64,000 nt of DNA from Cyanophora paradoxa CCMP329 (GCA_004431415.1 QPMI01000568.1:1-64000); one strand, 5' to 3'; counted from the stretch's first letter, positions 12,231 through 58,256 are shown. Program-made: numbers and translations. Notes: a model not told the origin generated them from the letters alone.

Positions 12231-12255
12231 AAATCTCAGGTATATATAGAGAGGG

Positions 12256-30369: not shown

Positions 30370-30787
30370 GTCGGTCGGTCTGTAGTGAACCTCACAGTTA
30401 AAACCCCGCATCGCATTAATAGACCTCATCGATAATCAAAGCAATTTACGATCGATTCCTTACCAATGCCCGATAGGAATCGTAAATTGCTCACTTTTCA
30501 TCAACCCTCGATCAAAAACCATGACCCCCTACCTATGCCTCTCATATATATCTATCGACTTTATTGATAAATCACATTTTCTCTCTTTACCCATGACCCC
30601 CTCCCTGTGGTTTTACTGTAAGATTTTATTGTATCTATACGGAAAAAAGGATATACTATATCCTTTTTTAATGATAGATCTACCTTGGGGATATCGAACA
30701 GTATCCATTGTTGAAAAACAAAGGAATCCTTTATTTCCACGAGATACAATAGAATCATACAGTAGAATGTCTATCGTAAAAAATGAC
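30370..30787 (+). repeat. Left terminal inverted repeat of element C
   Basis: Reverse complement of 57850-58256, apart from a few substitutions and a short divergent patch near 30495-30515; internal hairpin at 30441-30490. Confidence 0.95.
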
Positions 30788-31212
30788 CGGAATCCGGAAA
30801 GTAATCATTGTAGAAAGCTATTGTAATAAAAAAGGTAAATTACCCTGATCACCATAATAGAAACCCATCAAAACGGGAATCTATCATGTTTATGTCTCTC
30901 AGTCTTCTCAAATGTTAAGAAATTCATTGTTTTATCGATCTCATCTGCTACTGATTGTGTTTTATGCTGAGCTTCTTTACCACAACTGAATATATCAATT
31001 GCTAACATGCCTTCATTGGAATAACAATGAGCTGTACAATGGCTTTCATCTAATAGCAGAACCAAAGCAAAACCAGGAGGTGATATTTTGCCATCAAATA
31101 TCTCACAATGCTTATGAACAATCCTAATACCTTGTCTCAATACTGCTTGTTCAAGGGTTCCCATAATCCAATTACCTAGGAAGCTAACATGCTCATAACC
31201 TGTTGCTATAGC

Positions 31213-33379
31213 GAGGGGAGAGGGGGGTACGGAAAATTTACGGTAGCGCGACGATTACGGCGGCGCAGCGGGCCAGGTTTCCCACCCGTGGGTTCCTGAT
31301 AACGCTGCGTGTCAAGCTGCTCGGAAAGTCGCGCGCCAGCTCCACCCGACCCCCGTAGCCAGAACGCGCTAGATAGACCAGCCGGGCGTGCACGGACAGC
31401 CGACACGAGCACATCATCACCAATCGCAACCGCCGAAGTCGGTAGCCCGCCCCGGAGCGCCAGGCAGCCCCGCCAACCTCGCCGCGTCATCTTTTTTGAA
31501 TTCCACGGACCCCGGACCCCACCTGCGCCCTGCGCGGAGCGCAAAGCAATCGCCCTGCCTCTCCCGATAGACGATAAGAGCTCTTAAGCAACTGAACTGC
31601 CGCCCAGTCCCGCGCATTGCGCCCCGATGCTGACACTCACTCACTGCCTGTCACACCGCAGACATGAGCCGATCATCCACGGACGACACACCGGATGTCG
31701 CCGCCATGCCCGGCGAACGACGTAGACCGTGCTTGCGCGACGCTCGCCGGCGCCCAGGCCCCGCGGGCCCACGCCCCGCCCCCTTTCCCCGGACTGGGCC
31801 CAAAGGGCGCCCACCTGGACTCCTCCCCCCCGAGGCCGGTACAGAAGCGTGTACGCTCGGACCCCCTGCCCCCCGTCCGCAGTCCGAGCCAGACGAGGCC
31901 CGCCCGGACCCGGCCTTCAAGCCGGCCCCTGCCCTCCCGCTTCAGCGCCCCGCCCCCGCCCTCCGGCTCCAGCGCCCGCCCCGCCCTCCGCTCCAGCGCC
32001 CCGCCCCCGCCCTCCGGCTCCAGCGCCCCGCCCCGCCCCCAGCTCCAGCGCCCCGCCCCCGCCCCAGCTCCAGCGCCCCGCCCCCGCCCCCAGCTCCAGC
32101 GCCCCGCCCCGCCCTCCGCTCCAGCGCCCCGCCCCGCCCCCAGCTCCAGCGCCCCGCCCCCGCCCCCAGCTCCAGCGCCCCGCCCCGCCCTCCGGCTCCA
32201 GCGCCCCGCCCCGCCCTCCGGCTCCAGCGCCCCGCCCCGCCCTCCGGCTCCAGCGCCCCGCCCCCGCCCTCCGGCTCCAGCGCCCGCCCCCGCCCTCCGG
32301 CTCCAGCGCCCCGCCCCCGCCCCCAGCTCCAGCGCCCCGCCCCCGCCCCCAGCTCCAGCGCCCCGCCCCCGCCCTCCGGCTCCAGCGCCCCGCCCCCGCC
32401 CTCCGGCTCCAGCGCCCCGCCCCCGCCCCCAGCTCCAGCGCCCCGCCCCGCCCCCAGCTCCAGCGCCCCGCCCCCGCCCTCCGGCTCCAGCGCCCGCCCC
32501 CGCCCCCAGCTCCAGCGCCCCGCCCCCGCCCCCCAGCTCCAGCGCCCCGCCCCCGCCCTCCGGCTCCAGCGCCCCGCCCCCGCCCCCAGCTCCAGCGCCC
32601 CGCCCCGCCCTCCGGCTCCAGCGCCCCGCCCCCGCCACCCCTCTAAGTGCCCCGCCGCCCTAGCGCCCCGCCGCTCCCTCGCGCCCTTCCCCGTCGCCCC
32701 CAGCGCCCCGCCGCCCCCCCAGTGCCCTTCCCACGTCACCCCTCTCAGCGCCCCGCCGCCCTAGTGCCCCGCTGCTCCCCCGTGCCCTTCCCCCGTCGCC
32801 CCCGGCGCCCCTCCGCCCCCCAGCGCCCTTCCGCCGCCGCTTCCCCAGGGCCCCGCCCCCAGTGCTCCTCCACCCCTTAGCCCCCCGCCCTTTGCCCCGG
32901 CCCCCAGCGCCCCGCCCCCGCCGCCCCCAGCGCCCCGCCCCCGCCGCCCTCTAGCGCCCTGCCCCGACCCTCGGCGCCCCGCCCCGCTCCCGGCCCGTCA
33001 CCCTCCCGCCCGCCCCGCCCCGCCCGCCCCCAGCTCCCCGACCCCAGCGCCTCACCCCCGCCACCCTCCAGCGCTCCGTGTACCCCACTCCCTGCCCTTC
33101 TCCCCCTCCCTACGCCTCGCCCCCGCCGACCCCCAGCACCCCGTGCGCCTCGCCTCCCCCTCCCCCCTCTCTTCCACAGGGCCAAGGACACCAACGCATC
33201 AGGCCCTCCTAAAGCTGTAGATCGATAGCTCACAGCTAGGATAAGATAGCAGGACGTCTTCCTTCTATGCCGCAGAGCATTTGCGCTAGCCTAGGCGCCC
33301 CCCCGGTCGACGTCACCGACGGGGCGGCGGTTGTTGTCCTTAATACGAACATTGCCCGGTTGGGCTTTTGCAAAAAAAA
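31213..33379 (+). mobile_element. Non-autonomous non-LTR retroposon (SINE-like) with GC-rich tandem repeats
   Basis: 16-bp TSD AACCTGTTGCTATAGC (31197-31212, 33380-33395), A-tail, 3' stem-loop GCCC-GGTT-GGGC, no credible ORF. Confidence 0.9.
31920..32640. repeat. GC-rich tandem repeat, ~23-29-bp units with core CTCCAGCGCCCCGCCCC
   Basis: Direct tandem repetition. Confidence 0.9.
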
Positions 33380-33472
33380 AACCTGTTGCTATAGCTGATT
33401 TAGCCTTGTAATCAAGCATAACATGAAAGCCTCTGTATTTAGTCTCCATTAAGAATACCTTAGAAAAATTAA

Positions 33473-33745
33473 CTAGTCAAACCTAATGCAAATATCCCTA
33501 TACTCTACTCTGATTGATGAAGTAGCCCTTTTCCTGTGTGCTTGACTCTTTCTTTTGTTACAGTCCCTACACCCTGATCCCTTCACATGATTAAAGGGAT
33601 ATGTTAGGATCACCTTGTTACATTGCAAACATCTAACAGATACTTTCTCTTGAGCTTTGATGTAATGTGTCTCACTGTAATCGAATTTATCTTTACCATG
33701 GACTGTCATAGCAGCATCAATAAACTTTTTTGTTTTAGTATCCAT
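33473..33745 (-). CDS. Small zinc-ribbon protein
   Basis: Orthologue of 12256-12528. Confidence 0.75.
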   Translation of the reverse strand: MDTKTKKFIDAAMTVHGKDKFDYSETHYIKAQEKVSVRCLQCNKVILTYPFNHVKGSGCRDCNKRKSQAHRKRATSSIRVEYRDICIRFD

Positions 33746-33767
33746 ACTCTATATATACCCAATATTC

Positions 33768-34601
33768 TTATGGAGCAGTATCCTGCCCAAAAATGGGGAA
33801 ATATCGATTTGTCCCATAGTACTCAGCATAGGTATTCTGCTTTGCAATAAAATCGGTTCTCTCAGCATATAATACACACTTGTAGATGCCAAACTTGGTG
33901 GCTCTAACCAGAAACTGATAGTCTTCCAAACCGAAATTGACTCCATGATAAGCAATACCAAAATTATCATATGGGGTGATCACAACAGCAAAATTAGGAG
34001 TTCCACCCTCTACTTGACAAAGAGCATAAACATCTGGTGGGATATCCACAACTACCTTGTAGTGGTCACCAATTTCAACAAGAGAGTCTACTACTGCTGT
34101 TTGTTCATTCACAACAATTGGGAATATTTTTATTATATAGGGGGCATTCATGCTGGGGACATAGGTTCGAATTCTTGTGTTGGGATCAATGGGATTGGGT
34201 TGATCATTCACAAATAGAGGCGCTCCAACAGCCCCACCAACCCTAAGACCATCACCAATATAAGCTCCCCCCGATTTGCAGTTAATAGCTCCCGACCTAG
34301 ATTCAAAAGAATAAGTAGAAAGAGGATCTCCATAGCTATCTGGGTCTCCATAATGAGCAGAAAAGTTTGCATTGGTAACAAGTAGCTTAGTTGTCTTAAC
34401 TATTCCATTATTTTTATCACATCTGAGTTCCTGTAATCTCAGTTTATGGGTGGAACCAAAGGTGTTCATTGTAGGTTGGACCTCTGTCGATTGGAGACCC
34501 TCTACATCATCAAAGGTAGCATGCTGTAGAACATGGTTTGCTGGGGCAGCTAATGATAGCTGTGGTGTAATAATTCGTTCAAGTGGGGGTTGCTCAGCCA
34601 T
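33768..34601 (-). CDS. Virion-associated protein with shared N-terminal fibre module
   Basis: Near-identical to 11403-12230. Confidence 0.8.
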   Translation of the reverse strand: MAEQPPLERIITPQLSLAAPANHVLQHATFDDVEGLQSTEVQPTMNTFGSTHKLRLQELRCDKNNGIVKTTKLLVTNANFSAHYGDPDSYGDPLSTYSFESRSGAINCKSGGAYIGDGLRVGGAVGAPLFVNDQPNPIDPNTRIRTYVPSMNAPYIIKIFPIVVNEQTAVVDSLVEIGDHYKVVVDIPPDVYALCQVEGGTPNFAVVITPYDNFGIAYHGVNFGLEDYQFLVRATKFGIYKCVLYAERTDFIAKQNTYAEYYGTNRYFPIFGQDTAP

Positions 34602-34624
34602 TTTACATTAAAGGGATATATCTT

Positions 34625-35469
34625 TTATGGGGTTGGGTCATCAATAATATCTGGTTCCGAATAAAACCCTGTTTGAGAAAGAGTATCAGGAGTTACACCT
34701 CTAAGAGCTGATACAGCGGCTATATCTGTTCTCAAACCGATAAGAGTTATAGTATATAACCCAATATCTGTAACAAACAAGTCAAAGGTGAAATTATTAT
34801 TATAAACACAGTAGCCATAACCGAAATGATTATATCCCTGAACATTGAAATAGTATTTATGACCTACTTGATTGTTGTTGGCTCTACAAAGGGAAAGCAT
34901 TGCAGATGGAATCGCAAGACCTCTCAGTACTCTTTTGGTTCCTTCAATTAATTCCGAGTTTTCAAGAGTAACAGTATATCCAATGTAAAATTGAATTAAT
35001 GGCTGCTGTGCAACAGGAGTATATAATCGAATTCGTTGGGGGTCTTCCACATTTTGCTCTAGAGTATCTGGGACATCATTATACGAAATGGAGGATGAGA
35101 GTTGACCTGACACTCTGCAACCTCCCCAATAAATGCTCCTCCTGATCTCACAGTAACAGCAGCAGTATTCTTGTCGAAATCTAGGGCTTTCAGGGCAACA
35201 CTGTAAGCATCAGGACCTCCATTTGTAGGCTGGAAGAAGTTAGCATTGGTGACAAGAAGTCGAGTTGTTTTAACCACACCAGAATTCTTATCAGCTCTCA
35301 GCTCTTTTACTCGAATAATCGAATTTTTATCAAAGGAGTTACCATTGGAATTGGGTCTCTCTGTGGATTCTAAACCACGAACCTCATCATTTACTTCATG
35401 CTGGCGAAAATGCATTGCAGGGGATCCAAGGGAATATATAGGCAGTTGAACTCGATTATATTCACCCAT
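34625..35469 (-). CDS. Virion-associated protein (one frameshift near 35120)
   Basis: Orthologue of 10525-11379; N-terminal half near-identical, C-terminal half diverged. Confidence 0.75.
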
Positions 35470-35518
35470 TGCTTCTTTTACTAAGAAGGAAAGAAAAATA
35501 ATGCGAAATATGCATTTA

Positions 35519-38500
35519 TTATGGGATTCCATATGCTGTCCAATGGATTGTGCAAGTAATACTTCGACTTTCAGATAGAGTAGGGGATGCTATGAATGTC
35601 ACATAAATTGTTGTATAGGTAGATGTGGAGTTTGAGATTCCAATTCTAAAATCTACATCCCCAGGGTTTGTTGCAGGAGTTCCTTCAAGTGTGGCAGTTA
35701 CAACAGGTGTCTTAGTGTAAAAAGCAGGATCCCAATTCAAAACCTGTGCATGCTGTGTTCTCTGACCTGCGCTTATAACACCACTTGTAGCCTGATATTT
35801 GCCTGATTTAAACCGCCTTTCCATATCATGCCATGAGGGGACTTGGCTAATTGTGTTGGTGGTTCCTGCATTCATTGCATAAAATGCCCTTGCATAAGCA
35901 TTTCCTCTGCAGAGCAAGGTTTTATCATAGAAGTTTGCTGAATTGTGGAAGAACCAAGTTTCCTCATTTGTAGGCGATGCAGGGGCTACTATTTGACCTG
36001 ATCCTACATACATAGTATTATTTGCAGTGATTGTATTGGCTGTGAATGGGTCTAAACTTGGGAGATCTGTGATTTCTGATTTAGTATGAGTATGGGCGAA
36101 ATCTGTAATATTTGCCTTTGTGTGAGTATGGGCAAAGTCGGTGATATCTGATTTAGTGTGAGAGTGAGGTCCGACAGTTGTAGAAGCTGTTGGTTTCCCA
36201 TAAATGTTATCCCAATGCAAGAAGCCGCTATGTGAGGATACAGTGGGGTTCTTGCTCCAACCTACAAGACCCACAAGGTAAATCCTTCCTATTCGCCCTT
36301 GAACACCCACTTTACTCAGCCCTTCACAATTCACTCCGACATATTGCCTATACTCTACACTTGGGTCACTACCAGGAGAATAAGCATTTACTCTCGAAAG
36401 AGTATAGGAATTGGTTGATGGATAAACTCCTACAACATCAAAGTATCTACTATTGTATTGACACACATAGAAGATATAGCATGTTTTCATTCCAGCAGGC
36501 ACAGTCCATAACATCTTGTAGCCACTACAATCTTCATCACCAGAAGCCCATGTGTTTGCTCCTGAGTAAGGAGATATAAATGTGAAAAATCTCCAATCAC
36601 CTGTGCGATCTGTGGAAAGACCATTTGTGGCATCAAAGTTAATTGGAGATGTGTATGTTGGTTTATTTATCAGATCATCGTAATTTCCTGTCGTTGCAAC
36701 AGTTGCAAGATTAGGTCTATCTGTGATATTTGACCAAGCATGAGTATGGGTTGCAGGAGGGAATGTTAAAGGTTTATCTGTGATATTGTTCCATGCATGA
36801 CTGTGAGTTTGAAGTGCAACACCCAATTCGGTTTCATCTATATAATTTTTGCTTTGTAGGTAATCATCTGTGACCACACCCGAAAGTGTTTCATTGTGTA
36901 AGTTTTTTGCCGCCATTCTCTGATTGGCTTCAATAGCCCCACCTGATAGCGTTTTAATCCAAGCGATCTCAGCTTTACTGTAATTATCAGTTGGTTGCCC
37001 AACAAGTGGAATATAATTGAGTTTATCCCGAGTGAAAACTATCTTAGGTCTTGATCCATCCAAGCTGCTTACATCTGTCACATTCACATGGACAGCTGCT
37101 GAGAAGTCTTGATAACCCGCAGGATTGGAGGGAACACCGAACCCATCCTTTGGAATATCGTTTTTGTAATAGCTTGTCACATAGATATTGGGGAAGGTGT
37201 CACCTGGGTTAACATAGGCTACATCTTGCACTCGGAATTGAGGCAAGCTTCGGACAAATAGAGGTCCTGTCATTCCACTGCCTGCATCAGCCCCTTTGAG
37301 GTGAACATAATGCTCATTCAAAATAGTTCTTTCCGCAATATTGCAGGATTTATAAAGGGAAACCCCCATATTCACAGGTTCGACCTTTGAGAATTCAGGT
37401 TGGTTATTGATCTCATCCCATGTATGCTCATGGGTTGCAGGTGGGAATATTGAAGGTCTATCTGTGATATTCGACCAAGCATGAGTGTGGTTTTGTATCC
37501 ATCCCTGCACAACATTGGATGTAGTGTAGTTTGGAATTATAGCGTTTGAACCTACTATTAAATTTTTAATGTGGACATAGTCGGAAGAAATTCGCAGATT
37601 TTCTGGATAATAGAGAGATTGAGTTTTTGGGAAGCCATAATAATCCTGAATATAGTATCTCACCCTTTGCTTCTCCTCAAACGTCAAGGCTCTGTTGAAA
37701 ATGATGTATTCGGCTATATCACCTATGAAATAGTTAACACCCATCCTACTGAAAGTTGAAGGTGGAAGGTAATTTGTTCCTGTAAAGGTTCCTACATCTT
37801 GTCCTCTGATTCCAAAGGTTATGCTGTTTGAAGTTATGGTGGTGTCCCAATAATTAGCTGAATGGGAAGCATAATTGGTGTTCACTCGTGGGGCTGTGTA
37901 ACCCACCCCATTACTCGTAAAAGAATACAAGCCAAATAATAAGGAGTTTACATAGCCAAACTCTATTTTATGGGTTCCATCAGGAGAACCAAAATCTAAA
38001 TGAACTGTTTGCCAATTTGTTGCAGAGTAGTGGCTGCCTACATAGAACAGTGTCATGCCCTCTGACCAATCAACGGATACATTATAGTTAATGAATGCCG
38101 ACGCAGTATATCCACCTGACTTTCTTACCACTTTTCGGTTGTTCAATGCAGCATTAGCTGCAACAGTTCCACTACTTCCCCAAAATGGGAAAGTAATCCC
38201 TGAAATAAATGGCACAGCTGCTGTCGCTCTATTGGGGATGAACTGATTGTAAGGATTTGTGTTAACAGGAAGCCCATCCATTCTCATTGTATAGAGGCAT
38301 TTCGGTGTGGTTTTGGCAGGGTCAGTGTTGGAAGTAATGGGGTAATAGGGTGGATCATAGTAGACATCGATTTCTGTATTTCCGTCTCCTATTTTCAGCT
38401 TTCCCTTCACATTCAGGTTACATGTAACTGTAAGATTGCTACCAATCCAAGCGGATCCTGTGTTGCTACTGTTAATTGATTTCAATGTTCCATTTACATC

Positions 38501-41500
38501 CAAATTACTTGTGGTTAGGTTGCTTGTTATAATAAGATTTCCATCTATTGTTCCCCCTGATTTTGGCAAGTAGTTGTTGAGCCACCCTAATGTAACATTA
38601 CTACTTGTGAGAGGAGCCAAGAGTTCGTTTAATGTAGCTGCACTCACCTTCGAAACAAGCCATCCCTGAACAGTATTTGAAGAGGTTAGAGGAGCTATTT
38701 GAGCATTCACAGTTGCTGTATCAGCCTTAGTAGCAAGCCATCCCTGAACTGTGTTAGAAGAGGTTAGAGGAGCTATCTGAGCATTCACAGTCGCCGTATC
38801 AGCCTTTGGAGCCAACCAACCCTGCACCACATTGGATGTAGTGTAGTTTGGAATGGAAGCGTTTGAACTAACTATAATGTTCTCAATGTGAACATAATCA
38901 GCAGCGATTCGTAGATTGTCAGGATAATACAGTGATTGCGTTTTTGGAAAACCGTAATAATCCTGAATATAATATCTCACCCTTTGCTTCTCCTCAAACG
39001 ACAAGGCTCTGTTGAAAACGATGTATTCGGCTACATCACCTATGAAATAATCGACTCCCATTCGATTGAAAGTGGAAGGGGGAAGGTAATTTGTTCCTGT
39101 AAATGTTCCTACATCTTGACCACCAATGCCGAAAGTTATTGCATCAGAAGTGATTGTGGTATCCCAATAATTGGCTGAATATGATCCATAATTTGTATTC
39201 ACTCGTGGAACTGGGTAACTCACCCCATTACTCGTAAATGAATACAAGCCAAATGATAAAGATGACCCATACCCAAATGCTATTTTATGGGTTCCATCAG
39301 GAGAACCAAAATCTAAATGAACTGTTTGCCAATTTGTTGCGGAATAGTGATTACCCACATAAAAAAGTGTCATTCCTTCCGACCAATCCACAGTAACAGA
39401 GTAGTTTATGAATGCCGCCGCAGTATACCCACCTGACTTTCTTACCACTTTTCGGTTGTTCAATGCAGCATTAGCTGCAACAGTTCCACTACTTCCCCAA
39501 AATGGGAAAGTAATCCCTGAAATAAATGGCACAGCTGCTGTCGCTCTATTGGGGATGAACTGATTGTAAGGATTTGTGTTAACAGGAAGCCCATCCATTC
39601 TCATTGTATAGAGGCATTTCGAAATGGTTGTAGCAGGGTCAGTGTTGGAATTAATTGGGTAGTAGGGTGTGTCATATGTCACATTCAATAGAGTTCCATA
39701 GGTTCCTAATTCGAAGTTGCTGGATACTTTCAGACTGCCTGCAATGGTGACATTATTACTTGTATAAATGTTACTTGTGTAAAGGTTGCTTGTGTAAATA
39801 TTACTATTAACTGTCAGGTTTCCTGTGATTGTCCCACCCACCAGAGGAAGATACTTGGATAATTCGGCTGCAAGTTCATTTTTAGTTACATAATTTGCGA
39901 GCATAGCAAGGGTGACTATATTCACAAGAACAACAGCAGTAAGGTAATCCTCTGTGACTACTCTCGAAATGCTCTCATTGTGTATGTTTTTTGCTGCCAT
40001 CCTCTGATTGGCTTCCAGAACCCCACCATAATCTGTTTTAATCCATGCAAGCTCTGCCCTTCCATAATTATCATTTGCAGTTCCCACTATGGGAATGTAG
40101 GAATACTTATCTCGACTGAAAACTATCATTGGTCTTGATCCATCTAGACTGCTTACATCTGCTACATGAACCTGTATAGCAGAGTTGTAATTTTGGTAGG
40201 TTGCTGGGTCTGTTGGGACTCTGAATGTATCTGTGGGAATGTCAGCCTCCATATAGCTTGACACAAAGATATTTGGTATGGTTGCTCCTGGTTCAGGTGG
40301 TGGATTATAAGAGCCTGGTAATGTCCTAATATGAAGTGGTCCTCTCATAGCTGAATTCGCAAGTGTCCCATTCACATGAACATAGTGGTGATTCAAAAAG
40401 ATCCTTTCAGGGACATTGCAAGTCTGGTAAAGAGAAACTCCCAGAGTAGCAAGAGGCTCAACTTTTGCAAATTCTGGTTGGTCATTGATCTCATCCCAGG
40501 TGTGTTCATGGTTGCTTGCTGCAAACTTATCTGGAATCCCATCAATATCACCCCAATCATGCCTGTGGTCTTCTGGTGGGTATTTCTGTGGTTTGCCTAA
40601 GATCTCATCCCAGTCATGATTGTGGTCCTCTGGAGGATATCTCGCTGGTTTATTGTTTATTTGCTCCCAGTCAGGGAAGATCTCGAAAACCTCAGGTTGC
40701 AAACCATCTGGTAACAGTTCCTCATGGGGGTCATGGGGTTGCTCATAGTCAACAGCTGGGGGATCATGACCATCTGCTAAATACTCCTCATGTGGTTCAT
40801 AATTCTGCTCATACTCATACTCTTGTGGATCATGTCCATCTGCTAAATACTCCTCATGGGGTTCATAGTTCTGCTCATACTCATACTCTTGTGGGTCTAA
40901 GCCATCTGGTAATATTTCCTCCTCATTGGGGTCATATTGATCATATTCATACTCTTGTGGGTCGAAACCATCTGGTAAATACTCTTCCTCATCTGGAACG
41001 AATTGATATTCATCAAGCTCTAATATATCGACTTCAGGAGGTAAATACTGCTCATCTATTTGCTTTCTGGGTTCAATTATAGGTTTATTGCGAACTTGCT
41101 CCCAACTCACAATATGCTGCCCAAAGGCTACATCTTCAGTTGCTGTGTATTCTCTTCCAGGCTGCTTCTTTGGTGTTAGATCGGGTGGTCCATTGGGAAA
41201 TGGAATAGGGAATGGGACAGTAGGTCCATTGGGACCATAATGCTCAATGATTTCCCTTAGAGTTTTCTCACTAACAAGCTTCTCTCCATTTGCATACACA
41301 TTGCTGCCATGGATATTTCGCCATTGCCTGGTTCGAATTCCAAGGTCTTTCACATTGCTATACAAAGGCAAAAGGTGCCTATCCATTTCGACTAAATCAG
41401 GATGCAAATGGATTGCTACTGGTTGACTGGGGCTACTGTTGATTGTAATTGATGGCTTTTTTTGATGGACATCTTTTGGAGTAAAGAACCCAAAAGGCTC

Positions 41501-42012
41501 ATTTCTTGCAAAGTCATATGTAATATCCTTGGGGTAGACATCATTTGTGTAGGAGACCTGATTTGTATTGGCAATGGGACCCACTTGCAATACTTGGGGA
41601 CCTCAGCTTTTGCAGTGCTGCCCTCATTGTAAATTCGTAAAGCTGTGTTCTGTTTGCCCTGCTCATCTTGAACATTGAAAATCAATCGACCACTATCGAA
41701 CCTGGAAGGTATATCTGGGTGAGTGCCACTGGTTTTCAGTTTCCTAGGTCTCCTTCTGGTGGCTTTGATCTCTGCCACTTGGTTTGCTTTCACATTACCC
41801 AAACTAAAAGCAACACTGACATCCTCTTTATCTGGATCGGTTTGATTCACAGATAAAGCATGCTCCCTTGATTGAGTCTTTGATGAATTATCAGAGCTGT
41901 GGTCAATTGAAACTGAACCCTTTACTTTAATATTATCAAAGTTCACATGCTTGGTGCTGCTTGCATTATCATCTTGAATGGTTTCTAGATTGGGTGGGTA
42001 ATTGAAGCTCAT
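35519..42012 (-). CDS. Giant fibre/spike protein (~2160 aa; one frameshift near 41595) with duplicated LamG/ConA-like domains
   Basis: Homologous to 4813-8111, plus two copies of a domain ending FIGD(V/I)AEYI(V/I)FNRAL..EEKQRVRYYIQDYYG, TSNx repeats and HTH repeats. Confidence 0.8.
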
Positions 42013-44533: not shown

Positions 44534-44562
44534 TTTAATATATAAATATAGATAAAAGAAGA

Positions 44563-48001: not shown

Positions 48002-48057
48002 ACCATATTCAGTCACCTTGCATTATTTTTATCTGTTTCTTTATAGAAAGATACACA

Positions 48058-48852
48058 ATGCCAATACCAAGTTCTGATCTGGAGGAATTCAATGCTGGAG
48101 AAATGATAGAACCCCCTTTCCGACTACTCATACTAGGTAAAAGTGGATGCGGAAAAACAGAAGCTGTAAAGTATTATTTGAAACAGCTGCATGATGCGAA
48201 AAAAATTGATACAACCCTTATTATATCCGCTACGTCATTCTCACATTTTTGGGACAAAGCTGCTACAGTGCAACTGGGTGCATGGGACCCCCAATACATG
48301 TCGAAAATTATAAAAGAAAGAGAGGCAAAAAGGGAGAAAGGAGAAGAACTTAACCATATGCTGGTGATTTTAGAAGATATGATAGAAAATGACCAGCTGG
48401 ATCTCAGTCGAGATAAAACAGTGGGAATGCTTTATGTTCGTGGCAGACATGTCAATATATCAATTATAACTATTTCTCAGAAATTGCGGAAGGTTGCAAG
48501 TGTAATTCGCTGCAATAGTGATATAGTAATTATGGTTTGTGCAAGCAATCAAAAAGAGCTGGAAGCATTTGCAGAGGAGTTTTCTACTTTTCCCCGCAAA
48601 GAAGATTTCTATAAACTTTTTGAGGAGTATGTGCATTCGTATCAATTCATTGTTTATACTTCTTTCAAGTATAATGTGGGCTACTATGTTGATAAAGCCG
48701 ATTTAGTTGGAGATTTTGATTTTCCTCGCTTCCACAGGAAGCCCAAAAAGAAAGAAGATGAACTGAAACCACCAGAGAAAGAGGAAGCCCCTAAAGAAGT
48801 GAAAAGCCAAGTCCATAGCAATAAATTGATGCGATATAAACGCGGTTTATAA
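48058..48852 (+). CDS. A32-like FtsK/HerA genome packaging ATPase
   Basis: PFRLLILGKSGCGKT (Walker A), LVILED (Walker B), RGRHVNISIITISQ, IRCN. Confidence 0.9.
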   Translation: MPIPSSDLEEFNAGEMIEPPFRLLILGKSGCGKTEAVKYYLKQLHDAKKIDTTLIISATSFSHFWDKAATVQLGAWDPQYMSKIIKEREAKREKGEELNHMLVILEDMIENDQLDLSRDKTVGMLYVRGRHVNISIITISQKLRKVASVIRCNSDIVIMVCASNQKELEAFAEEFSTFPRKEDFYKLFEEYVHSYQFIVYTSFKYNVGYYVDKADLVGDFDFPRFHRKPKKKEDELKPPEKEEAPKEVKSQVHSNKLMRYKRGL

Positions 48853-49615: not shown

Positions 49616-49637
49616 TTTTCTCTGTTTTATTAGAGAC

Positions 49638-50103: not shown

Positions 50104-50187
50104 ATCTCGCTGCATCACAAAAAATGATTTAAGGATAACCCCCTAATTTAATTAGAGAAAAAACTTTTCTTGGCTATTAATAGGAAG

Positions 50188-50580: not shown

Positions 50581-50761
50581 ATGCTGAGGTTTGCAGCTCT
50601 GTATATATTATTTTTATGCATGCTTTTCTATCGAAAAAGAAAAAATGATTTTATCGCTGTGGTCAACAAAAAATGACTTAAGGAAAATCTATTTATATAA
50701 CTTAGAGAAAAAAGAGTTTTTTTCTTCTTGCGGCATTTATTTTCTTGGCTTAAAGTAAACA

Positions 50762-53700
50762 ATGCCTCGCGCAAGTTACAAGAGAAGAAAAGGCTTGAAA
50801 GCAAAAGCGATTGAATTGATTAACCTTGGTATCCAGCGGAACCTGTTCACCAAGAGAACCGCTGATGCATTATTGCGCAAATTCTCGGGAACATCCAAGG
50901 TTCCCGAAACCATGCTGGAGCTGTATTTGAAAAACATCCAGTCAATATTCGATATCGAACGGCCTGCAAGGGGATATACCCTGCAATCGCTGCTTGGGGT
51001 TCGCCAGGCTTTATTTGATCGAGAGGTCGGTCGCATCGGAGCCATTGAGGCTGAACCTACGAGACCCCGAGAGAACAGGCAGCTAACTCAATTTTTCCGG
51101 CAGATTGCCCAGTTTCCCGACGACGCTATTGTCCGGGTCACTTTCAGACTCTGGGCTGAGATTAATGCTGAACCCACTGGTCGTGCAAGGGATCAGCCAC
51201 TCCGCTTCGAAGGTCGCATGTACCGACCCCTGAAAAGGGCTTCAATCACAATTCCAGTAAGGATGCTGCGACAAATAGCCCAAGATGGTTTCGTTACGAG
51301 GTTTGTGCTAAACCAGAGACACTATATGGTCGCTGATTTCCTGTATGTTGTTGAGACCGTATTTAGGGCTGATCGACTTGCAAGCGAAATTCAGCATTGG
51401 TACGATTATTTTGCGGAAATTCACGAAATCGTTCTGGTGGAGGCTCAGGCTGAGGAGGAAGCCCAGGAAGCCGTTCAAGAAGAATTTCTCGATGAGGAAC
51501 TCGAAGAATCGATGCGATGTACCGCAGCTGTGAGCCAGTACATTAATTACGATCTCAATCCCGAGGCGAAATCGATCGAGGAATTAATCATCAAGCCTGC
51601 TTCCGGAAAATCGAATGCCTGTGTCTACGATATGCTGATCTCATTGTACTCTCGTTCAATGGAAGCTTGTCACAGAAACAGGAAGTACAAGGACATTGAG
51701 ATGACCTACGAGGGTCTGTATCGATTTTTCCACGGAAAGGAATATACTGAGGGAGCCTCTATGTCCCTCACTCTGAGGCAGCTCCGAAAATTCGCGGATC
51801 GTTGCAGGCTGGGATTCCGTGTTTACTCGGAGGATAACAAGCTCAAGTACAGATACCCACAGGGAGAGATGCCCGTGAATAAGGATCTGCATCCGCAATG
51901 CATGAATTTCATGGTACACAATAACCACGTTTACTGCTACAACGATAACATCAAAGCCCTCGAGAAGAATTTCAAGAAAATGGACCTGGAAACCGAAAAC
52001 CCTTCCGAAGCTTCGCTGAACTCATCCTACCAAATCACCGAGACCAAGCAATACGATATGTTCGCCCACACACCTGCCGATCTGCTTAAGATTGCGACCA
52101 TGGGATTGAAAGCTGATAAGGAGAAAGCTACAGTCCGAATCGTCTACACTGGGTCCATGGATGAGCTTCTGTTCACTTTCTTGGATCGCCTACAATACGA
52201 ACCAAAGCTCGGAATGAAAGGGGGACAGATTAAAACTCTAATATTCAAAGCGAGTGGAATATTCTTTTCCGTATTTAATCCCTCCGTTTCTGATCACATG
52301 GTTCAGTGTGAGTTTGAGACTGAGGCTTACTACAAAAAGGTCCAATCTATTCGTCAAGAATTCAAGGAAGCCCTGATTAACACCGACACAATTTCACAGT
52401 ACGAGGAGGGCTTCCGAACAGCCCTTATTAATTACAATCGCTCTGCTCTGAATGGCTATTTCATTAAGCCGAAGCCAGGAACTAAATACACTGCAGTGGA
52501 TATGTGCAAATGCTACCCAGCTGTTATTAGCAAGATCGAGAAGCTTCCAGTATTCAATATTTTCGATGGCATCCGCCCCTATGATGGTCACCCAATTGAG
52601 GAGGATACCTTCTATGTGATTGATGTGCAGCAGTTCGATACTGGAACCTACATGCAAGGAGTGGATACATACGAAGAGGATATTGATGATGAGCCAGTTG
52701 GATACAAATCCCGCATCTGCGATCCAGGAATTCAGATCCTGCTCGATCGTTACAAGGCTGCATCATACTCGAACTTGATCACAGGGTACACTCTGAAACG
52801 TCACTGGGAGGACATCAAGGATCTCGTGACTATTACAGGCTACAACCGCCCATCATTTTTCGTAAGCAACCCCTCAAAAAGGCTGATCCAGAAAATAATG
52901 TCAAGCGACCTGAATCCTCGCGAGAAAAAGGCTACTCTCGTAGAAGTGATTGGTCTGCTAGGAAAGCGACTCGATAAGCGATCCAAGACCAGGTTGTTCT
53001 GCAAAAAGTCCGAGGCTGATATCTATGCCCAGCAGGTGGGCGGAATGGTGGAAGTATTCACCTTTTGTGCGAAAACTGATACTCTGGTCAAGAACCTTTC
53101 GGATTTCGATGGCCACATCTATTATGTGAGAACTGATTCTCAAAAGGATCTCATTAACGGGTTCCTTCCGATCCAGTTCGCAATGTACGATCGAGTTCGC
53201 AGCGAAATGTATGACAAGTACAAGGAACTCAAAAGCAAGGGTTACGAGGTCGTGGGAATCCACACTGATTGCCTGTATATCAAAGGAAGGTATAGCTCAA
53301 AGCCCTTTGATCGTAACTCATTTGCCAACATTGGTCGCTTCTCCTATATTCCGAACAAGAAGCCCCCAATGAACCCCATTCGCATTCGGACCCTCCCGAA
53401 GCCTATTAAAATTGAGGATCCCCTTTTGAATATCAATTCCTTCTGCCTTCGAAACGAATTTGATTCGGACGCTTATACCAAGGTTTACAATGAGTTCAAT
53501 CATGTCAATACCCTTGGAATGCTTCCAGGAGCCGGAAAGTCGACCGGATTGATGGTCTACCTGCTAAAAAATGACATCAACGGACTCATAGTTTGCCCCT
53601 ACAACAAACAAGCGGCCGAGTTCCGATGCTCTCTGAAAGAAATGGGCATCAGATTGGGGAAGCCCGAAGCTGCAAGCCGCATTGAGGTGGCCACCCTGTA

Positions 53701-54904
53701 CAGTGTTCTGGGTCTGCGAGTCTCAAATGAGCAAACCTGTGAAGAGGCCCTATCGGCTTCACAGGTCAATGAGTTTATGGAAGGCTTTTCCCATGTAGTA
53801 TTCGATGAGGTCTATGCCTATAAAGTAAAGGACCTTGCAAAGATCAAAAAATTCATAAACAAGTATTCGGATAAGAAATTCTACTGCAATGGAGACCCCC
53901 ACCAAAACGCTCCCATAAATGATGCTCTTGCTGTGGCTGACCCCAAACAATATTACAGCGATGCTATCTCAAGCATCTTCCCCAACACACTGCAGCTGAT
54001 GATCAACAAGAGGCATCGCAAGCCTGAGGATCGAGAGAAGCTGAAAGCAATCAAGGTCGATCTCTTTGAGAACGGACTTGCTCCTACAGAAATAGTAAAT
54101 AAATACGGATTCAGAACTGCAACTGATCTAAACGAAATTCCTGATTCCTACAGGGCTGTATGCTATAGAAACGAGATGGCTTACCTGTACAACCGAACCA
54201 TGCATAAACGTATATACCCCGAAACCGAGGGGATCCTTGTGAACGGAATCAATTTTTTCAAAGGAATCGAAATCGTTTGTCGTGAATATATCTGTGTGAC
54301 CCGAGGTAAAAAAGATGAGAAAGTAGCGGCTTTCACTAATTACAGTTATACCATAGTCGATATCAATCGGAACCAGGTCACTTTGGAGGATGTGTTTGAT
54401 GGGACCCAGTTCTCTCTCCCCACTGCTCTGTTGGAAAAGTTCAACCTACCCTATGCTGGAACATGCCACAGTGTTCAAGGACTCACCTACGATTCGGGCA
54501 TTGTCGTCTGTGAGGCCTCGTTCTGCCATGTTACTCCTGAGTGGTTCTGGACTGCTCTGACTCGCAACCGAGATTTGAGCGAGATTCTCATTTATACCAA
54601 GCTCCACAAGTTCGAGGCTAAATCCGAGATCTTCGAGCATCTGAAGGCCAAGGTTCGGGCATACAAGTGCCAGGATCAGAAAGCGGGCCGAGATTATAAC
54701 GATGATGATTATATTACACCCGAGTGGATCATTGAGCAGCTCAAGGAGCAGAAGCGAATCTGCTCTCTGTGTACCGAACCCCTTTCCCTCCAGGCAAAGG
54801 ATCTAAGGTACAGGCTTACTGTCGATAGGATTAATAATAAAGAGGCTCACATCAAGTCGAACTGCAAGCTGGCTCATCAAGGATGCAACAGCAGCAAAAA
54901 ATAG
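50762..54904 (+). CDS. Divergent family B DNA polymerase fused to an SF1 helicase and a C-terminal HNH/EndoVII-like domain
   Basis: PolB motifs AVDMCKCYP, KATLVEVIGLLGK, GIHTDCLY; SF1 motifs PGAGKST, FDEVY, GDPHQN, TCHSVQGLT, WTALTR; CxxC...TVDRINNKEAHIKSNC...CN. Confidence 0.85.
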   Translation: MPRASYKRRKGLKAKAIELINLGIQRNLFTKRTADALLRKFSGTSKVPETMLELYLKNIQSIFDIERPARGYTLQSLLGVRQALFDREVGRIGAIEAEPTRPRENRQLTQFFRQIAQFPDDAIVRVTFRLWAEINAEPTGRARDQPLRFEGRMYRPLKRASITIPVRMLRQIAQDGFVTRFVLNQRHYMVADFLYVVETVFRADRLASEIQHWYDYFAEIHEIVLVEAQAEEEAQEAVQEEFLDEELEESMRCTAAVSQYINYDLNPEAKSIEELIIKPASGKSNACVYDMLISLYSRSMEACHRNRKYKDIEMTYEGLYRFFHGKEYTEGASMSLTLRQLRKFADRCRLGFRVYSEDNKLKYRYPQGEMPVNKDLHPQCMNFMVHNNHVYCYNDNIKALEKNFKKMDLETENPSEASLNSSYQITETKQYDMFAHTPADLLKIATMGLKADKEKATVRIVYTGSMDELLFTFLDRLQYEPKLGMKGGQIKTLIFKASGIFFSVFNPSVSDHMVQCEFETEAYYKKVQSIRQEFKEALINTDTISQYEEGFRTALINYNRSALNGYFIKPKPGTKYTAVDMCKCYPAVISKIEKLPVFNIFDGIRPYDGHPIEEDTFYVIDVQQFDTGTYMQGVDTYEEDIDDEPVGYKSRICDPGIQILLDRYKAASYSNLITGYTLKRHWEDIKDLVTITGYNRPSFFVSNPSKRLIQKIMSSDLNPREKKATLVEVIGLLGKRLDKRSKTRLFCKKSEADIYAQQVGGMVEVFTFCAKTDTLVKNLSDFDGHIYYVRTDSQKDLINGFLPIQFAMYDRVRSEMYDKYKELKSKGYEVVGIHTDCLYIKGRYSSKPFDRNSFANIGRFSYIPNKKPPMNPIRIRTLPKPIKIEDPLLNINSFCLRNEFDSDAYTKVYNEFNHVNTLGMLPGAGKSTGLMVYLLKNDINGLIVCPYNKQAAEFRCSLKEMGIRLGKPEAASRIEVATLYSVLGLRVSNEQTCEEALSASQVNEFMEGFSHVVFDEVYAYKVKDLAKIKKFINKYSDKKFYCNGDPHQNAPINDALAVADPKQYYSDAISSIFPNTLQLMINKRHRKPEDREKLKAIKVDLFENGLAPTEIVNKYGFRTATDLNEIPDSYRAVCYRNEMAYLYNRTMHKRIYPETEGILVNGINFFKGIEIVCREYICVTRGKKDEKVAAFTNYSYTIVDINRNQVTLEDVFDGTQFSLPTALLEKFNLPYAGTCHSVQGLTYDSGIVVCEASFCHVTPEWFWTALTRNRDLSEILIYTKLHKFEAKSEIFEHLKAKVRAYKCQDQKAGRDYNDDDYITPEWIIEQLKEQKRICSLCTEPLSLQAKDLRYRLTVDRINNKEAHIKSNCKLAHQGCNSSKK

Positions 54905-54922
54905 AATTTGTATAGTTATAGG

Positions 54923-56290
54923 ATGGCATCGAAAATAGTGAGGCGAGGGGCTGGGGATGAGACCGAAACGACCCTGCTCCCCATTCCGATCCCAGATACA
55001 GAGAGAGTAGAAGGCAGAATTAGTAAAAGAGAAGCAAAGGTAAATGTAGTAGGGGATGTCCCTTTTAAAACCGTGAGTCCGGCTTCGAATAAAATAGTTA
55101 GGCGAATGTACGATCCTAAAACAGGTTACAAGCATCCCCATACGATCTATCAGGAGCTGAAGAAAGAGGATCCGAGTGTTACTTATAACGAGGTCAAAGA
55201 GGTGGCAGAAAAGCAAGAGTTTATGCAGATTAACAAGAAGCCACCCCCTGCATCGCAGTCCACATTCATTCCAATCACAGCTCCACCCTGGACCTACCAG
55301 GCCGATCTGATATTCTATTTATCTTACGGAAAGTACAATGCGGGGTACATTGCGGTACTCACTCTTATTGAGATCACGAGCAGGAGGGCTTACGCTAAGA
55401 AATTAAAGAATAAAGAGGGAGTCAGTGTTGCGACTGCATTTAGAGAGGTATTGGGTGAGCTTCCCGCTCCAATGAGGGTGTTAGAGACTGATTTGGGTTC
55501 CGAGTTTAAAGCGAAAGAGTTCCAGGCAGTGATCCAGGAGTTTGGAATCGAGCATAGGTTTAAACAGGCTGGGGATCACACGAGTTTAGGCATCATGAAT
55601 CGATTCCATTTCACCCTCAAAACGATGATCAATAACTACTGCATCGCTTTCAACACAGTCAAGTTTATGGATAAGCTAGAGGACTTTGTTCTGAATTATA
55701 ATTCCAGTGTTAATAGGACTATAGGTATGCGACCAATAGATGTTAGGTTAGAGGATATGGCTCGCATTCGCAGTTTCATTTTATCGAAAAAGAAAGCAAT
55801 TGTTGATGATATCTTCGAGAAATTCAAGCCCGGCCTGTTCGTTCGAGTCTTGCTGCCTAGGTCTAAGTTTGACAAGGGGGCCACTCAGAGATACAGTCGA
55901 GAGGTCTACAAGATTGCAGGAAGGGCCGGGAATGGAATCCAGGTCGTAGATGCCCAGGGTGTACCTTTGAATCGAATCTTCAAGCCTCATGAGCTGCAGA
56001 TCATATCGGAAGTTGAAGCAATCGTTGAGCCTTCCGCAAGTACAGTGGATACAGTGAGGCAGGAGGCCGCAGCAATTAGACAGATCCACAGAGAGGGCAT
56101 AGATCCGGCCGAATCAGTCCCAAAGGGCAGCTTGATCGAGGATAGGGTCCAGAGAACAAAGAGGGTTTCAAGGGAGCTAGCGAATCTAAGAGTAGCCGGA
56201 ACCGAGAAATTAGCCGGTGGGGCAGAGGCTGTAGCATCCTATGATAAGGCTCCAGCTATAAGGGCTAGTACTAGGATCCGAACCAGGTAA
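54923..56290 (+). CDS. rve (retroviral-like) integrase
   Basis: YQADL, LETDLGSEF, GIMNRFHFTLK, YNSSVNRTIGMRP, F.PG.FVR...FDKG...YS.EVYKI. Confidence 0.9.
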   Translation: MASKIVRRGAGDETETTLLPIPIPDTERVEGRISKREAKVNVVGDVPFKTVSPASNKIVRRMYDPKTGYKHPHTIYQELKKEDPSVTYNEVKEVAEKQEFMQINKKPPPASQSTFIPITAPPWTYQADLIFYLSYGKYNAGYIAVLTLIEITSRRAYAKKLKNKEGVSVATAFREVLGELPAPMRVLETDLGSEFKAKEFQAVIQEFGIEHRFKQAGDHTSLGIMNRFHFTLKTMINNYCIAFNTVKFMDKLEDFVLNYNSSVNRTIGMRPIDVRLEDMARIRSFILSKKKAIVDDIFEKFKPGLFVRVLLPRSKFDKGATQRYSREVYKIAGRAGNGIQVVDAQGVPLNRIFKPHELQIISEVEAIVEPSASTVDTVRQEAAAIRQIHREGIDPAESVPKGSLIEDRVQRTKRVSRELANLRVAGTEKLAGGAEAVASYDKAPAIRASTRIRTR

Positions 56291-56535
56291 AATTTTATAT
56301 ATTCGTATAGTAGGAAATGGAGAAAATCTATATTGAGGTCCCTTTTGAACAAAAAGATGAAGCTAAAGCCCTTGGGGCTAAATGGGATGGTATGTCTTGA
56401 AACCTTCGAAAGATTACACCCGGTTGTATCGGTAAACACCTTATCGGTTATTGCTTTTATGCGCTCTTCTTCCGATAAATCTGGATTAACGTAAAATCCC
56501 AAATGATTCGCGAAATACTCTTTGGTAATCGCCAT
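56239..56535 (-). CDS. Hypothetical protein (3' end probably rearranged)
   Basis: AAAAAATGAC motif 32 nt upstream; the 3' part runs antisense through the DUF5710 fragment and the integrase end. Confidence 0.4.
   Translation of the reverse strand: MAITKEYFANHLGFYVNPDLSEEERIKAITDKVFTDTTGCNLSKVSRHTIPFSPKGFSFIFLFKRDLNIDFLHFLLYEYIKFYLVRILVLALIAGALS
56317..56400 (+). pseudogene. Truncated DUF5710-like ORF
   Basis: MEKIYIEVPFEQKDEAKALGAKWD followed by a stop three codons later. Confidence 0.55.
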
Positions 56536-56591
56536 GGTTACAGTGTGTAAACTTCTAAAAAAGGGGCGTCATTTTTTACCCGCGTTACATT

Positions 56592-57053
56592 TTACAAATA
56601 ATCAGGTCTTCTAAGTTCTTCTACCTCCATAAGTGAGAACATCTTAAAGATCTTACATATCTCACTTTCAGGATTATTAACATACCATAAACGATACTGA
56701 GGATCGTATATGGCGCCTTGTTTTTTTATGTATTTACGTAATGATGCCTGGGTAAATATACGTTTTGCCTCAATCTCCGGAAGTCTTGCTTTAATATCGG
56801 CAACGAAATAACGGGGACAATACTTTATAAAATACTCTTGGTCGATTTTGACAGGATGTTTAACAGGAAATTGCTTTAAAAGTTCGTTTTTTTCGTTTTC
56901 GACATACCATAACTGTAAAGCGGTATCCCATTTAGCCCCATTGTTTTCGAGAAGATCTTTATGTAATTCTGGATTCTCAATATCCAACATGAAAGCACCA
57001 TAGTAATTCATCGGTTCTTTCGTGGTGTTGCCGTAGTATACGAATGGATCCAT
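56592..57053 (-). CDS. Protein with two DUF5710-like repeats
   Basis: NNGAKWDTALQLWYV and KKQGAIYDPQYRLWYV. Confidence 0.6.
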   Translation of the reverse strand: MDPFVYYGNTTKEPMNYYGAFMLDIENPELHKDLLENNGAKWDTALQLWYVENEKNELLKQFPVKHPVKIDQEYFIKYCPRYFVADIKARLPEIEAKRIFTQASLRKYIKKQGAIYDPQYRLWYVNNPESEICKIFKMFSLMEVEELRRPDYL

Positions 57054-57116
57054 TTGTATTATATGTTTAACTTCTAAAAAAAAGATTGTCATTTTTTGTC
57101 CCGTTGAACATTTCAT

Positions 57117-57821
57117 TTAAATACCATGTTTTGAGAGAATACGGAATTTTGCACGATTGTAAAATTTCATTCTCTCTAACCAATCATCAGACTCTGGATC
57201 AAATGTTTTAAGCCAATTTTCAAAGTCTCTTGGCGATGAATGATTTAAACAATCACATGTTTTAGCTGAGATAATGTTTACCTTCGCACATTTCTTATCA
57301 CTACACATACAGTTACACATGTGAAATTCGGTCTCATTGTTTTCAATGCATTCCATCACATACTTAATCGTTCTTAAAGTGTGTGGATATTTCGGTTGTT
57401 CTCCGAGTTCTAATGGTTTCCGGTCTAATAAAGGAATGTAATTTAGAAGTTGTGGTTTAAAGTCTGTGATAAGATCGCATGCGTCTACACTTGAACATCC
57501 ATTTACAGAAAACCAAATTTTGCATATAACCTTTTCCAATTTAGGCGTTTTAGAATTTCCATGTGATGCTTTCCAATTCACATATGTGTAATCTTGCTTA
57601 CAGATTGGGCAACTTATCCATGTTTTAGATAGACTCAGATTAAGTGCAAATAAATTATCCGACTCACAGAATGGTTTTCCTTTACACGCTGGAAAAACAG
57701 AGATTTGTTTAACACTTGCTTTATACCAATCATCGAAACACTTTTTACAGAAGTTATGACCGCATTCTAATTGAGTCATACGATGACTTTTCATTTTATT
57801 AAAGCAAATAGGGCAATCCAT
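57117..57821 (-). CDS. RING-finger (C3HC4) protein, putative E3 ubiquitin ligase
   Basis: CPIC...LECGHNFCKKC...CPICK. Confidence 0.8.
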   Translation of the reverse strand: MDCPICFNKMKSHRMTQLECGHNFCKKCFDDWYKASVKQISVFPACKGKPFCESDNLFALNLSLSKTWISCPICKQDYTYVNWKASHGNSKTPKLEKVICKIWFSVNGCSSVDACDLITDFKPQLLNYIPLLDRKPLELGEQPKYPHTLRTIKYVMECIENNETEFHMCNCMCSDKKCAKVNIISAKTCDCLNHSSPRDFENWLKTFDPESDDWLERMKFYNRAKFRILSKHGI

Positions 57822-57849
57822 CGTTACTATATTTGATTGTTAAATTCTT

Positions 57850-58256
57850 GTCATTTTTTACGATAGACATTCTACTGTATGATTCTATTGTATCTCGTGG
57901 AAATAAAGGATTCCTTTGTTTTTCAACAATGGATACTGTTCGATATCCCCAAGGTAGATCTATCATTAAAAAAGGATATAGTATATCCTTTTTTCCGTAT
58001 AGATACAATAGAATCTTACAGTAAAACCACAGGGAGGGGGTCATGGGTAAAGAGAGAAAATGTGATTTATCAATAAAGTCGATAGATATATATGAGAGGC
58101 ATAGGTAGGGGGTCATGGTTTTTTGGGGAAAGTGAGCAAATTACGATTCCTATCGGGCATTGGTAAGGAATCGATCGTAAATTGCTTTGATTATCGATGA
58201 GGTCTATTAATGCGATGCGGGGTTTTAACTGTGAGGTTCACTACAAACCGACCGAC
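57850..58256 (-). repeat. Right terminal inverted repeat of element C
   Basis: Reverse complement of 30370-30787; ends in CCGACCGAC. Confidence 0.95.

Follow-up and report, generated by a model that had tools for sequence, protein, structure and literature searches.

A heavy load of polinton-like viruses (PLVs) has been described for a glaucophyte. By our reading of its columns, Table S6 of PMC12220804 lists, among 156 glaucophyte elements, pPolB in 49, the D5 type in 40, an SF1 helicase in 34 and TVpol in six, together with rve integrases in 85, tyrosine recombinases in 0, lipases in 89 and S-adenosylmethionine decarboxylase (SAMDC) in 66. Exchange of modules between such viruses has likewise been described: in the PLVs and virophages of Halocafeteria seosinensis, replication and integration genes are reshuffled within one host (10.64898/2026.07.28.741278), and in the Polisuviruses of Barth et al. 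(10.64898/2026.10.13.758929) replicases reassort relative to capsids, are linked to the integrase type, and tandem insertions occur. The stretch analysed here, referred to as the window, comprises 64,000 nucleotides of Cyanophora paradoxa CCMP329 (GCA_004431415.1 QPMI01000568.1:1-64000) and contains three endogenous PLVs, which we call AB, C and D. As in the PLVs published from this alga, we find a patatin-F5/8 fusion, a PTR-H-lectin fibre, SAMDC, rve integrases without a tyrosine recombinase, and more than one replicase class (PMC12220804, main text and supplement).

The three elements appear as AT-rich viral islands within GC-rich host DNA (1-14399, 30370-58256 and 62117-64000), as judged from GC content, open reading frames (ORFs) and self-alignment. 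A first-pass annotation had divided the first island into A (1-2864) and B (2865-14399), followed by C (30370-58256) and D (from 62117), and had built its case on four elements within 64 kb and on a terminus common to A and C. Since contigs bridge the supposed terminus of A at 2864 and thereby join A and B, the count is three and that part of the case fails; we therefore use the name AB for the joined element. For the clustering itself we infer a high PLV load without a special hotspot, because as many as 156 elements are tabulated for glaucophytes (PMC12220804). From our point of view it is fairly probable that AB, C and D are endogenous PLVs of which AB and C have exchanged an accessory arm in patches and differ in replicase and ends, and that the G-A-rich hairpins terminating AB and D, as predicted from their sequence, are used in the copying of genome ends.

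The bridged junction at 2864

Read data were available as contigs with depths from four coded runs. Contigs of two of these runs (X1 and X13) were placed on 2000-3700, where they cover 29 and 30 of 30 bins and where the binned depth does not collapse after 2864. The 9-mer CCGACCGAC (2856-2864, + strand), which the first-pass annotation had taken for a terminus, is bridged in both runs with at least 39 letters on each side, namely by a contig at 2772-2903 in X1 (depth 494) and one at 2751-2903 in X13 (depth 80), and both of these contigs differ from the window at 2854-2856, which alters the 9-mer. A second variant covers at least 2840-2873 (depth 605 in X1, 139 in X13), and in X1 the next contig after the variants of 494 and 605 has a depth of 1045. 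Because the junction is bridged at high depth by diverged variants in 2/2 runs, it is both old and amplified. AB is hence one multicopy element that consists of a probably classical pPolB, an rve integrase, an accessory arm, repeats and a hairpin end at 14399.

When contig depths are summed per region, which gives sums that do not equal copy numbers, X1 reaches 20,700-25,900 over the patch with the 284- and 275-aa genes, 15,300-19,500 over the hairpin end, 3,500-7,000 over the polymerase-integrase block and 250-4,100 over the C1q genes, and the pattern along AB is alike in 4/4 runs. Such depths are compatible with a large family whose cassettes vary. Most of the listed indels of the window are missing from the high-depth contigs, and for this reason the frameshifts in the window may be either long-read errors or decay of this particular copy.

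An origin of the internal 9-mer as a relic end is compatible with the reading given above, and we would rate its chances as slightly below even. In this scenario a PLV with a hairpin end would once have received, next to its patatin gene, a GTCGG-ended pPolB-rve module that either resembled a transpoviron or formed the right end of a C-like virus, and the composite would then have spread with its internal end decaying. In line with this, an exact match to the 9-mer is rare by chance (0.006-0.010 expected) and sits where an end would, after the integrase and after tandem repeats with 11- and 31-32-bp units (2404-2792); the order patatin, end, integrase, polymerase is that of an inverted C-like right end; the summed depth of hairpin ends is several times that of the AB polymerase-integrase block; and replication modules bracketed by repeats are described in Polisuviruses (10.64898/2026.10.13.758929). 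However, nothing in this region resembles the terminal inverted repeat (TIR) of C beyond the 9 nt (8/8 local alignments lie within the shuffle range), the motif was chosen post hoc, and the other end of the module lies outside the window.

Hairpin ends of AB and D

The observation in the first-pass annotation that B ends in iteron-type repeats plus a hairpin was confirmed: 72-bp repeats at 13725-13993 are followed by a hairpin at 14305-14399 (+ strand; z = -11), which has a perfect stem of 29 bp, three tandem GA/GA loops and a GCGAAGC tip. Since LINE contigs fit from 14400 exactly, AB interrupts a multicopy non-long-terminal-repeat (non-LTR) retrotransposon (long interspersed nuclear element, LINE; 14400-17549, - strand; PF00078) as its target, and its own sequence stops at 14399, where the outer arm of the palindrome has its final base; an 869-nt LINE contig was seen in 4/4 runs to align with 14400-15114, leaving 154 nt unmatched. 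The terminus of D appears, from its likeness to that of AB, to lie at 62115-62225 (- strand), with a perfect stem of 30 bp, five tandem GA/GA loops, the same GCGAAGC tip and 5'-ACACATA at 62117 (+ strand).

Both hairpins begin with 5'-ACACATA and fold at z values of -8 to -12. Their stems differ at 6/28 positions, each of which is compensated on the other arm, so that both stems stay perfect. The mismatches towards the tip are G-A in 6/6 cases in AB and in 10/12 in D, and every two-by-two loop (3/3 in AB, 5/5 in D) is a 5'-GA/5'-GA tandem beneath the GCGAAGC loop. In both elements it is the 3' end of the GA-rich strand that forms the terminus; the complementary strand would carry T-C mismatches. 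Tandem GA/GA pairs adopt the sheared form, which is stable, and the GCGAAGC miniloop is highly stable; standard folding leaves this stability unscored.

We propose that co-resident copies recombine homologously and in this way trade patches of the arm, cassettes for receptor binding and ends, and that the rve integrases re-insert the recombined products. On a displaced or excised strand the 3' end, which would always be that of the GA-rich strand, would fold back on itself into a hairpin with the GAA loop and sheared G-A tandems closing its tip. The paired 3'-OH would then prime the second strand, or protein priming at the 3'-TGTGT end would use the fold as its landing site. Such fold-back copying would keep both hairpin arms identical, and the integrase would finally join the ...ATGTGT-3' end to the host.

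A different and somewhat unlikely explanation is that the hairpin represents a covalently closed, mismatched telomere like those of poxviruses and chloroviruses; the palindrome would then arise by host repair, which unfolds the telomere after a nick by the integrase at a distance of about 29 bp from its tip. Compensation between the arms would be automatic if these were the two strands of one duplex, and the succession of genes, tandem repeats and an AT-rich, incompletely paired hairpin found in AB and D is the end layout of nucleocytoplasmic large DNA viruses (NCLDV) such as poxviruses, African swine fever virus (ASFV) and chloroviruses (PMC12085832; see also PMC11296320 for closed poxvirus-like telomeres). 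Against this stand the pPolB of AB and the fact that no resolvase was seen within the window. Further, both flip and flop forms are established for poxvirus telomeres, and resolution of a junction would yield both, with the flop form showing T-C mismatches here. Because flip and flop would thus give T-C tips, whereas 2/2 ends show the GA form, we prefer a 3' fold-back in second-strand synthesis, be it for self-priming or as a landing site for protein priming, over a closed telomere, at about even odds.

Several points weigh against the overall reading and its fold-back part. The hairpin sample consists of two ends that are homologous to each other. A looser version of the hairpin pattern gave at least 120 matches in viral contigs, and none among the matches listed folds like AB or D. 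The left part of AB and nearly all of D lie outside the window, including their capsids, their other ends and possibly a second replicase; by analogy the hairpin may go with a different replicase, because the palindromic ends of Halocafeteria elements prefer non-pPolB replicases (10.64898/2026.07.28.741278). The read data are short reads only, and about 1,100 of the X1 depth of 2,070 (2108-2287) is accounted for at 2845-2873, i.e. about half; the remaining AB-type depth may be diverged or may end at 2864, with no loose contig end at this position among the 12 of 35 listed. Lastly, SAMDC protein identity tracks the end type (AB-D 75%, AB-C 63%, C-D 55%), a trend that is not significant at four-fold sites (p = 0.79). 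Further searches gave no match to the AB-spaced hairpin pattern in viral contigs, no enrichment of the hairpin pattern above chance within the window except for D, and no Tap or Rep homologue.

Inward of the AB hairpin, the subterminal repeats (13176-13993) comprise 9/21-bp units and 3.7 copies of the 72-bp unit; they are putative iterons and homologous to the D repeats (63-72-bp and 21-bp units), which together with the SAMDC gene of D (63354-63752) occupy 62589-64000 (- strand) in an element that continues beyond the window. Inverted and direct inner repeats of TGTGACGCC units lie at 13214-13329 and 13500-13615, and D has an array of the same kind with 21-bp units (63019-63223); these arrays could possibly represent a protein-binding origin. 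The SAMDC-proximal end carries a TIR in C versus repeats plus a hairpin in AB and D. It is also worth recording that SAMDC, a polyamine-pathway gene in small DNA viruses, adjoins an end in all three elements (12715-13116, 30868-33470 and 63354-63752). The main LINE contigs show zero differing letters over 14400-16000, and upstream of the LINE a GC-rich 40-bp tandem array (16.5 copies, 19231-19891) resembles in composition an array inside the insertion at 31197-33395 described below.

Accessory arm, replicases and anatomy of element C

The accessory arm of AB comprises a frameshifted patatin-F5/8 lipase (3235-4763, - strand; PF01734; 67-83% identical to that of C), fibre-like ORFs of 550 and 551 aa with PTR and H-lectin domains (4813-8111, +), two C1q-domain genes of low contig depth (8131-10201, +; PF00386), the 284- and 275-aa genes (10525-12230, +), and a 90-aa zinc-finger ORF with SAMDC (12256-13116, +; PF02675). 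Patatin, fibres, the 284-type gene, the 275/277 pair, the 90-aa ORF and SAMDC form a block that B and C have in common, collinear and inverted, and the similarity ends at the patatin stop codon. The first-pass annotation had described these genes as near-identical and in the same order. The order holds, as does the near-identity of 275/277 (96% aa, 88% nt) and of the N-terminal half of 284 (93%), but the other ten of 12 segments are 48-83% identical at the aa level, and C lacks orthologues of the two C1q genes. The shared arm is, to judge from its sequence, a mosaic with old exchange and not a near-identical module.

The close patch, which spans 1.7 kb, has a synonymous divergence (dS) of 0.48 for the 284 N-half and 0.66 for 275/277 and a non-synonymous divergence (dN) of 0.02-0.05, while dS is above 1.1 or saturated in the remaining 10/12 segments. 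Four-fold sites are identical at 126/181 positions in the patch versus 74/189 in six flanking B-C segments (p = 4e-9); the C-terminal halves of 550 and 284 are intermediate (46/83 and 28/60 the same) and did not enter this contrast. In principle, such a patch could also be preserved without recombination, through strong selection or a low mutation rate, and the very low dN, the dS of still 0.5-0.7, by which any exchange was not recent, and the intermediate 550 C-half would all suit that view. We consider it improbable, since four-fold sites are under little protein constraint and nevertheless differ at p = 4e-9, and since the non-adjacent halves of the single 284 gene contrast sharply (93% versus 73%). 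It is thus likely that the collinear arm of AB and C was exchanged in patches.

Two side observations concern this arm. The C1q genes (8131-10201) are paralogous and of low depth, and contig joints skip one of them (8261 to 9329, 8650 to 9172); the pair forms a variable cassette that is likely receptor-binding. The 340-, 341-, 284- and 275/277-aa proteins (8131-12230, 33768-35532) have in common an N-terminal domain of about 120 aa (33-46% identity) and differ in their C-termini, and this domain is likely a capsid anchor with swappable heads.

Outside the arm, capsid, penton, ATPase and replicase of C have no match elsewhere in the window, the integrase being the exception, and B has no capsid, penton or ATPase gene within the window. 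As stated in the first-pass annotation, A and C have polymerases of two kinds, each directly upstream of an rve integrase: in A the C-terminus of a Polinton-type PolB, in C a polymerase-SF1 helicase fusion. The AB part, about 130 C-terminal aa of a Polinton-type PolB (1-426, +), contains stops and frameshifts in this copy and matches, in two weak collinear pieces (E 0.003; pairwise E 4e-4), the C-terminus of P0009, a PolB with exonuclease and the motifs A, B and C; an atlas search of this tail gave nothing above 0.9. The integrase family claimed to be common to A and C is indeed rve in both (E 7e-27), but the frameshifted AB integrase (595-1990, +) is only 28-45% identical to that of C over five pieces, or about 36% taken together. 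Taking the shared arm as reference, the polymerase-integrase block of AB is inverted relative to that of C.

The replicase of C (1380 aa, intact; 50762-54904, +) combines an OTU-like domain, a PolB palm, an SF1 helicase and an HNH-like tail. Cys and His of the OTU-like domain are invariant in 5/5 sequences, and 11/50 structural matches to a low-confidence model (predicted local distance difference test, pLDDT, 41) are OTU domains at about model residues 23-135, with middling Z scores of 4.2-5.4; glyoxalase rows among these matches were rejected as a common fold. The palm motifs D-x3-C/A-Y, GLL and xTD, in a reading that leans on PMC11161782, are present in 5/5 sequences, with the first Asp of motif C missing. 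The C-terminus carries the helicase (PF01443, E 4e-4) with Walker A/B motifs and a Cys/His-rich, HNH-like tail, as do the relatives, the nearest of which are only 23-28% identical. By these domains the protein is a Tlr1-like helicase as described by Krupovic et al. (PMC11161782). Separately, the order seen in C, with the rve integrase immediately after a Tlr1-type replicase, recurs in a metagenome contig (L135:678-4855).

Element C itself is a near-complete PLV. Its length of 27.9 kb falls inside the PLV range of 14-40 kb, its GC content is about 0.33-0.48 outside an insertion versus up to 0.75 in host DNA, and it is bounded by TIRs starting GTCGGTCGG. The first-pass length of about 410 bp for these TIRs is borne out by self-alignment (left, 30370-30793, 424 bp, +; right, 57844-58256, 413 bp, -), and the two copies are distinguished by an 11-bp indel and a small number of substitutions. 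From the left TIR inwards lie SAMDC (30868-33470, -), split by a 2183-bp insertion; the 90-aa ORF, the 277-aa gene and a broken 284-type gene (33473-35532, -); an internally duplicated fibre-like gene (198 + 1955 aa; 35519-42012, -); and a broken patatin-F5/8 fusion (42056-43611, +; PF01734, PF00754). There follow two ORFs without Pfam match (310 aa, -, and 336 aa, +; 43601-45573) which, from their position and an N-terminal motif, we presume to be candidate minor capsid (penton) genes, and the major capsid protein, of the double jelly-roll type and in two frames (45627-46996, +). The latter is assigned through the ESM atlas at 0.97 to Capsid_NCLDV clusters, with 10/10 family matches concurring and recognition below 2300; its closest named match is a Cyanophora paradoxa protein (58% identity), and the AlphaFold model of a homologue (pLDDT 35) is uninformative. 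A DUF723-type zinc-finger/endonuclease-like ORF (PF05265) and an A32-like packaging ATPase (PF04665, E 6e-14) occupy 47069-48852 (+). Beyond the replicase, the intact rve integrase (54923-56290, +; PF00665) and, by Pfam, a 98-aa ORF, a DUF5710 ORF and a RING protein (56239-57821, -) reach towards the right TIR.

The insertion in SAMDC (31197-33395) is GC-rich and resembles a non-autonomous retroelement, with a 26-bp tandem array, poly(A) and a 16-bp target duplication, and the fibre gene contains internal duplications that are not in AB (36858-37438 versus 39942-40515; 37499-37798 versus 38816-39115). No tRNA was found where looked for, and the 275-aa gene, ATPase, capsid and PolB tail had no genuine relatives among the viral or metagenome contigs searched; contig L002 was rejected as a spurious relative (12-residue match only). 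With 2 homologues of the capsid, 3 of the replicase and 2 of the integrase, the protein collections contain too few sequences for per-gene trees.

The flanks of C are unlike and show no target-site duplication (TSD) of the 5-6 bp that is frequent, not obligatory, with rve. This and the 11-bp indel between the TIRs would be explained if C were a chimera of two copies, formed by ectopic recombination or mis-assembly. We regard this as doubtful, as only 58% of the PLVs with rve in two clusters have flanking TSDs (PMC12220804), the gene set is coherent, and the same succession of replicase and integrase is found in L135.

With regard to module shuffling in one host, the central thesis of the first-pass annotation, the patchy divergence (p = 4e-9), the different end types and the two replicase classes upstream of rve speak in its favour, and the shared A/C terminus and the four-element basis fall away. 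The single virion module that it also assumed would, for B, involve capsid genes from outside the window. A layout in which A is a separate element ending at 2864 and adjoins B by chance has on its side the exact match to the terminal 9 nt of C and upstream subterminal-like repeats, but is very improbable: contigs cross the junction in 2/2 runs, their depth is comparable to that of the element, and diverged variants flank it on either side.

Comparison with described systems

Module shuffling, also within one host, Tlr1-type fusions, palindromic ends and a heavy PLV load in a glaucophyte are already published, and a shuffling thesis adds little to this work. The C replicase shows no difference of substance from the Tlr1-like helicase: Tlr1 elements and transpovirons encode a vOTU, a pPolB palm without the first Asp of motif C, an SF1 helicase, a C-terminal HNH and an rve integrase, as in C, and the C-terminal HNH or GIY-YIG domain is optional (PMC11161782; the helicase is also treated in PMC12721341). 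OmPLV, in contrast, has the reverse domain order and an exonuclease (PMC12721341). An association of SAMDC with polintons is not discussed in the main texts searched and is tabulated in the supplement of PMC12220804.

The new part, which we did not find in print, are G-A ladder ends on a pPolB-rve element. Hairpins and palindromes are not mentioned for glaucophyte PLVs in the main text of PMC12220804, the main text of Barth et al. (10.64898/2026.10.13.758929) does not use the word hairpin, and look-ups of the term show no mention of hairpins in PMC10120064 and 10.64898/2026.06.19.733378; for PLVs and virophages, the main texts searched did not describe hairpin termini with tandem G-A mismatches, and the supplements of preprints may show palindrome sequences. 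The terminal palindromes of Halocafeteria elements are proposed as replication-priming hairpins, occur mainly with non-pPolB replicases and are described, in the passages on them, without mention of G-A mismatches, whereas the AB hairpin sits on a pPolB element (10.64898/2026.07.28.741278). The replication mode of most PLVs is unknown according to the same source. AB and D offer a short, precise and testable substrate: a hairpin of 95-111 nt whose terminus is defined to the base, whose natural variants are compensatory and for which a strand asymmetry is predicted. Tens of copies with different end and replicase types in one alga, which is likely culturable, would allow a direct test of end-replicase pairing.

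Among viral telomeres, those of poxviruses, ASFV and chloroviruses are covalently closed, occur in flip and flop forms and are not known to be integrated by rve. The hairpins of AB and D differ from poxvirus-type telomeres in that their mismatches are G-A on one strand. As a functional analogy only, a comparison can be drawn with Streptomyces telomeres and parvovirus 3' hairpins, where a 3' fold-back with sheared G:A closure meets a protein- or self-primed end; G:A-closed 3' hairpins at the protein-primed Streptomyces telomeres have themselves been likened to the ends of autonomous parvoviruses (PMC4513846). The Streptomyces ends are bacterial and consist of several short palindromes (four) with single G:A closures bound by Tap (PMC4513846), whereas the AB and D ends each form one long stem with a tandem GA/GA ladder on an integrating eukaryotic virus, which places them outside the Streptomyces type. 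One could tentatively speculate, as a possibility that we rate below an even chance by a clear distance, that a strand-specific hairpin with a G-A ladder and a GAA miniloop acts as a replication end alongside a protein-primed polymerase and an rve integrase, is swapped modularly for TIRs, and would in this respect be a viral counterpart of the Streptomyces telomere.

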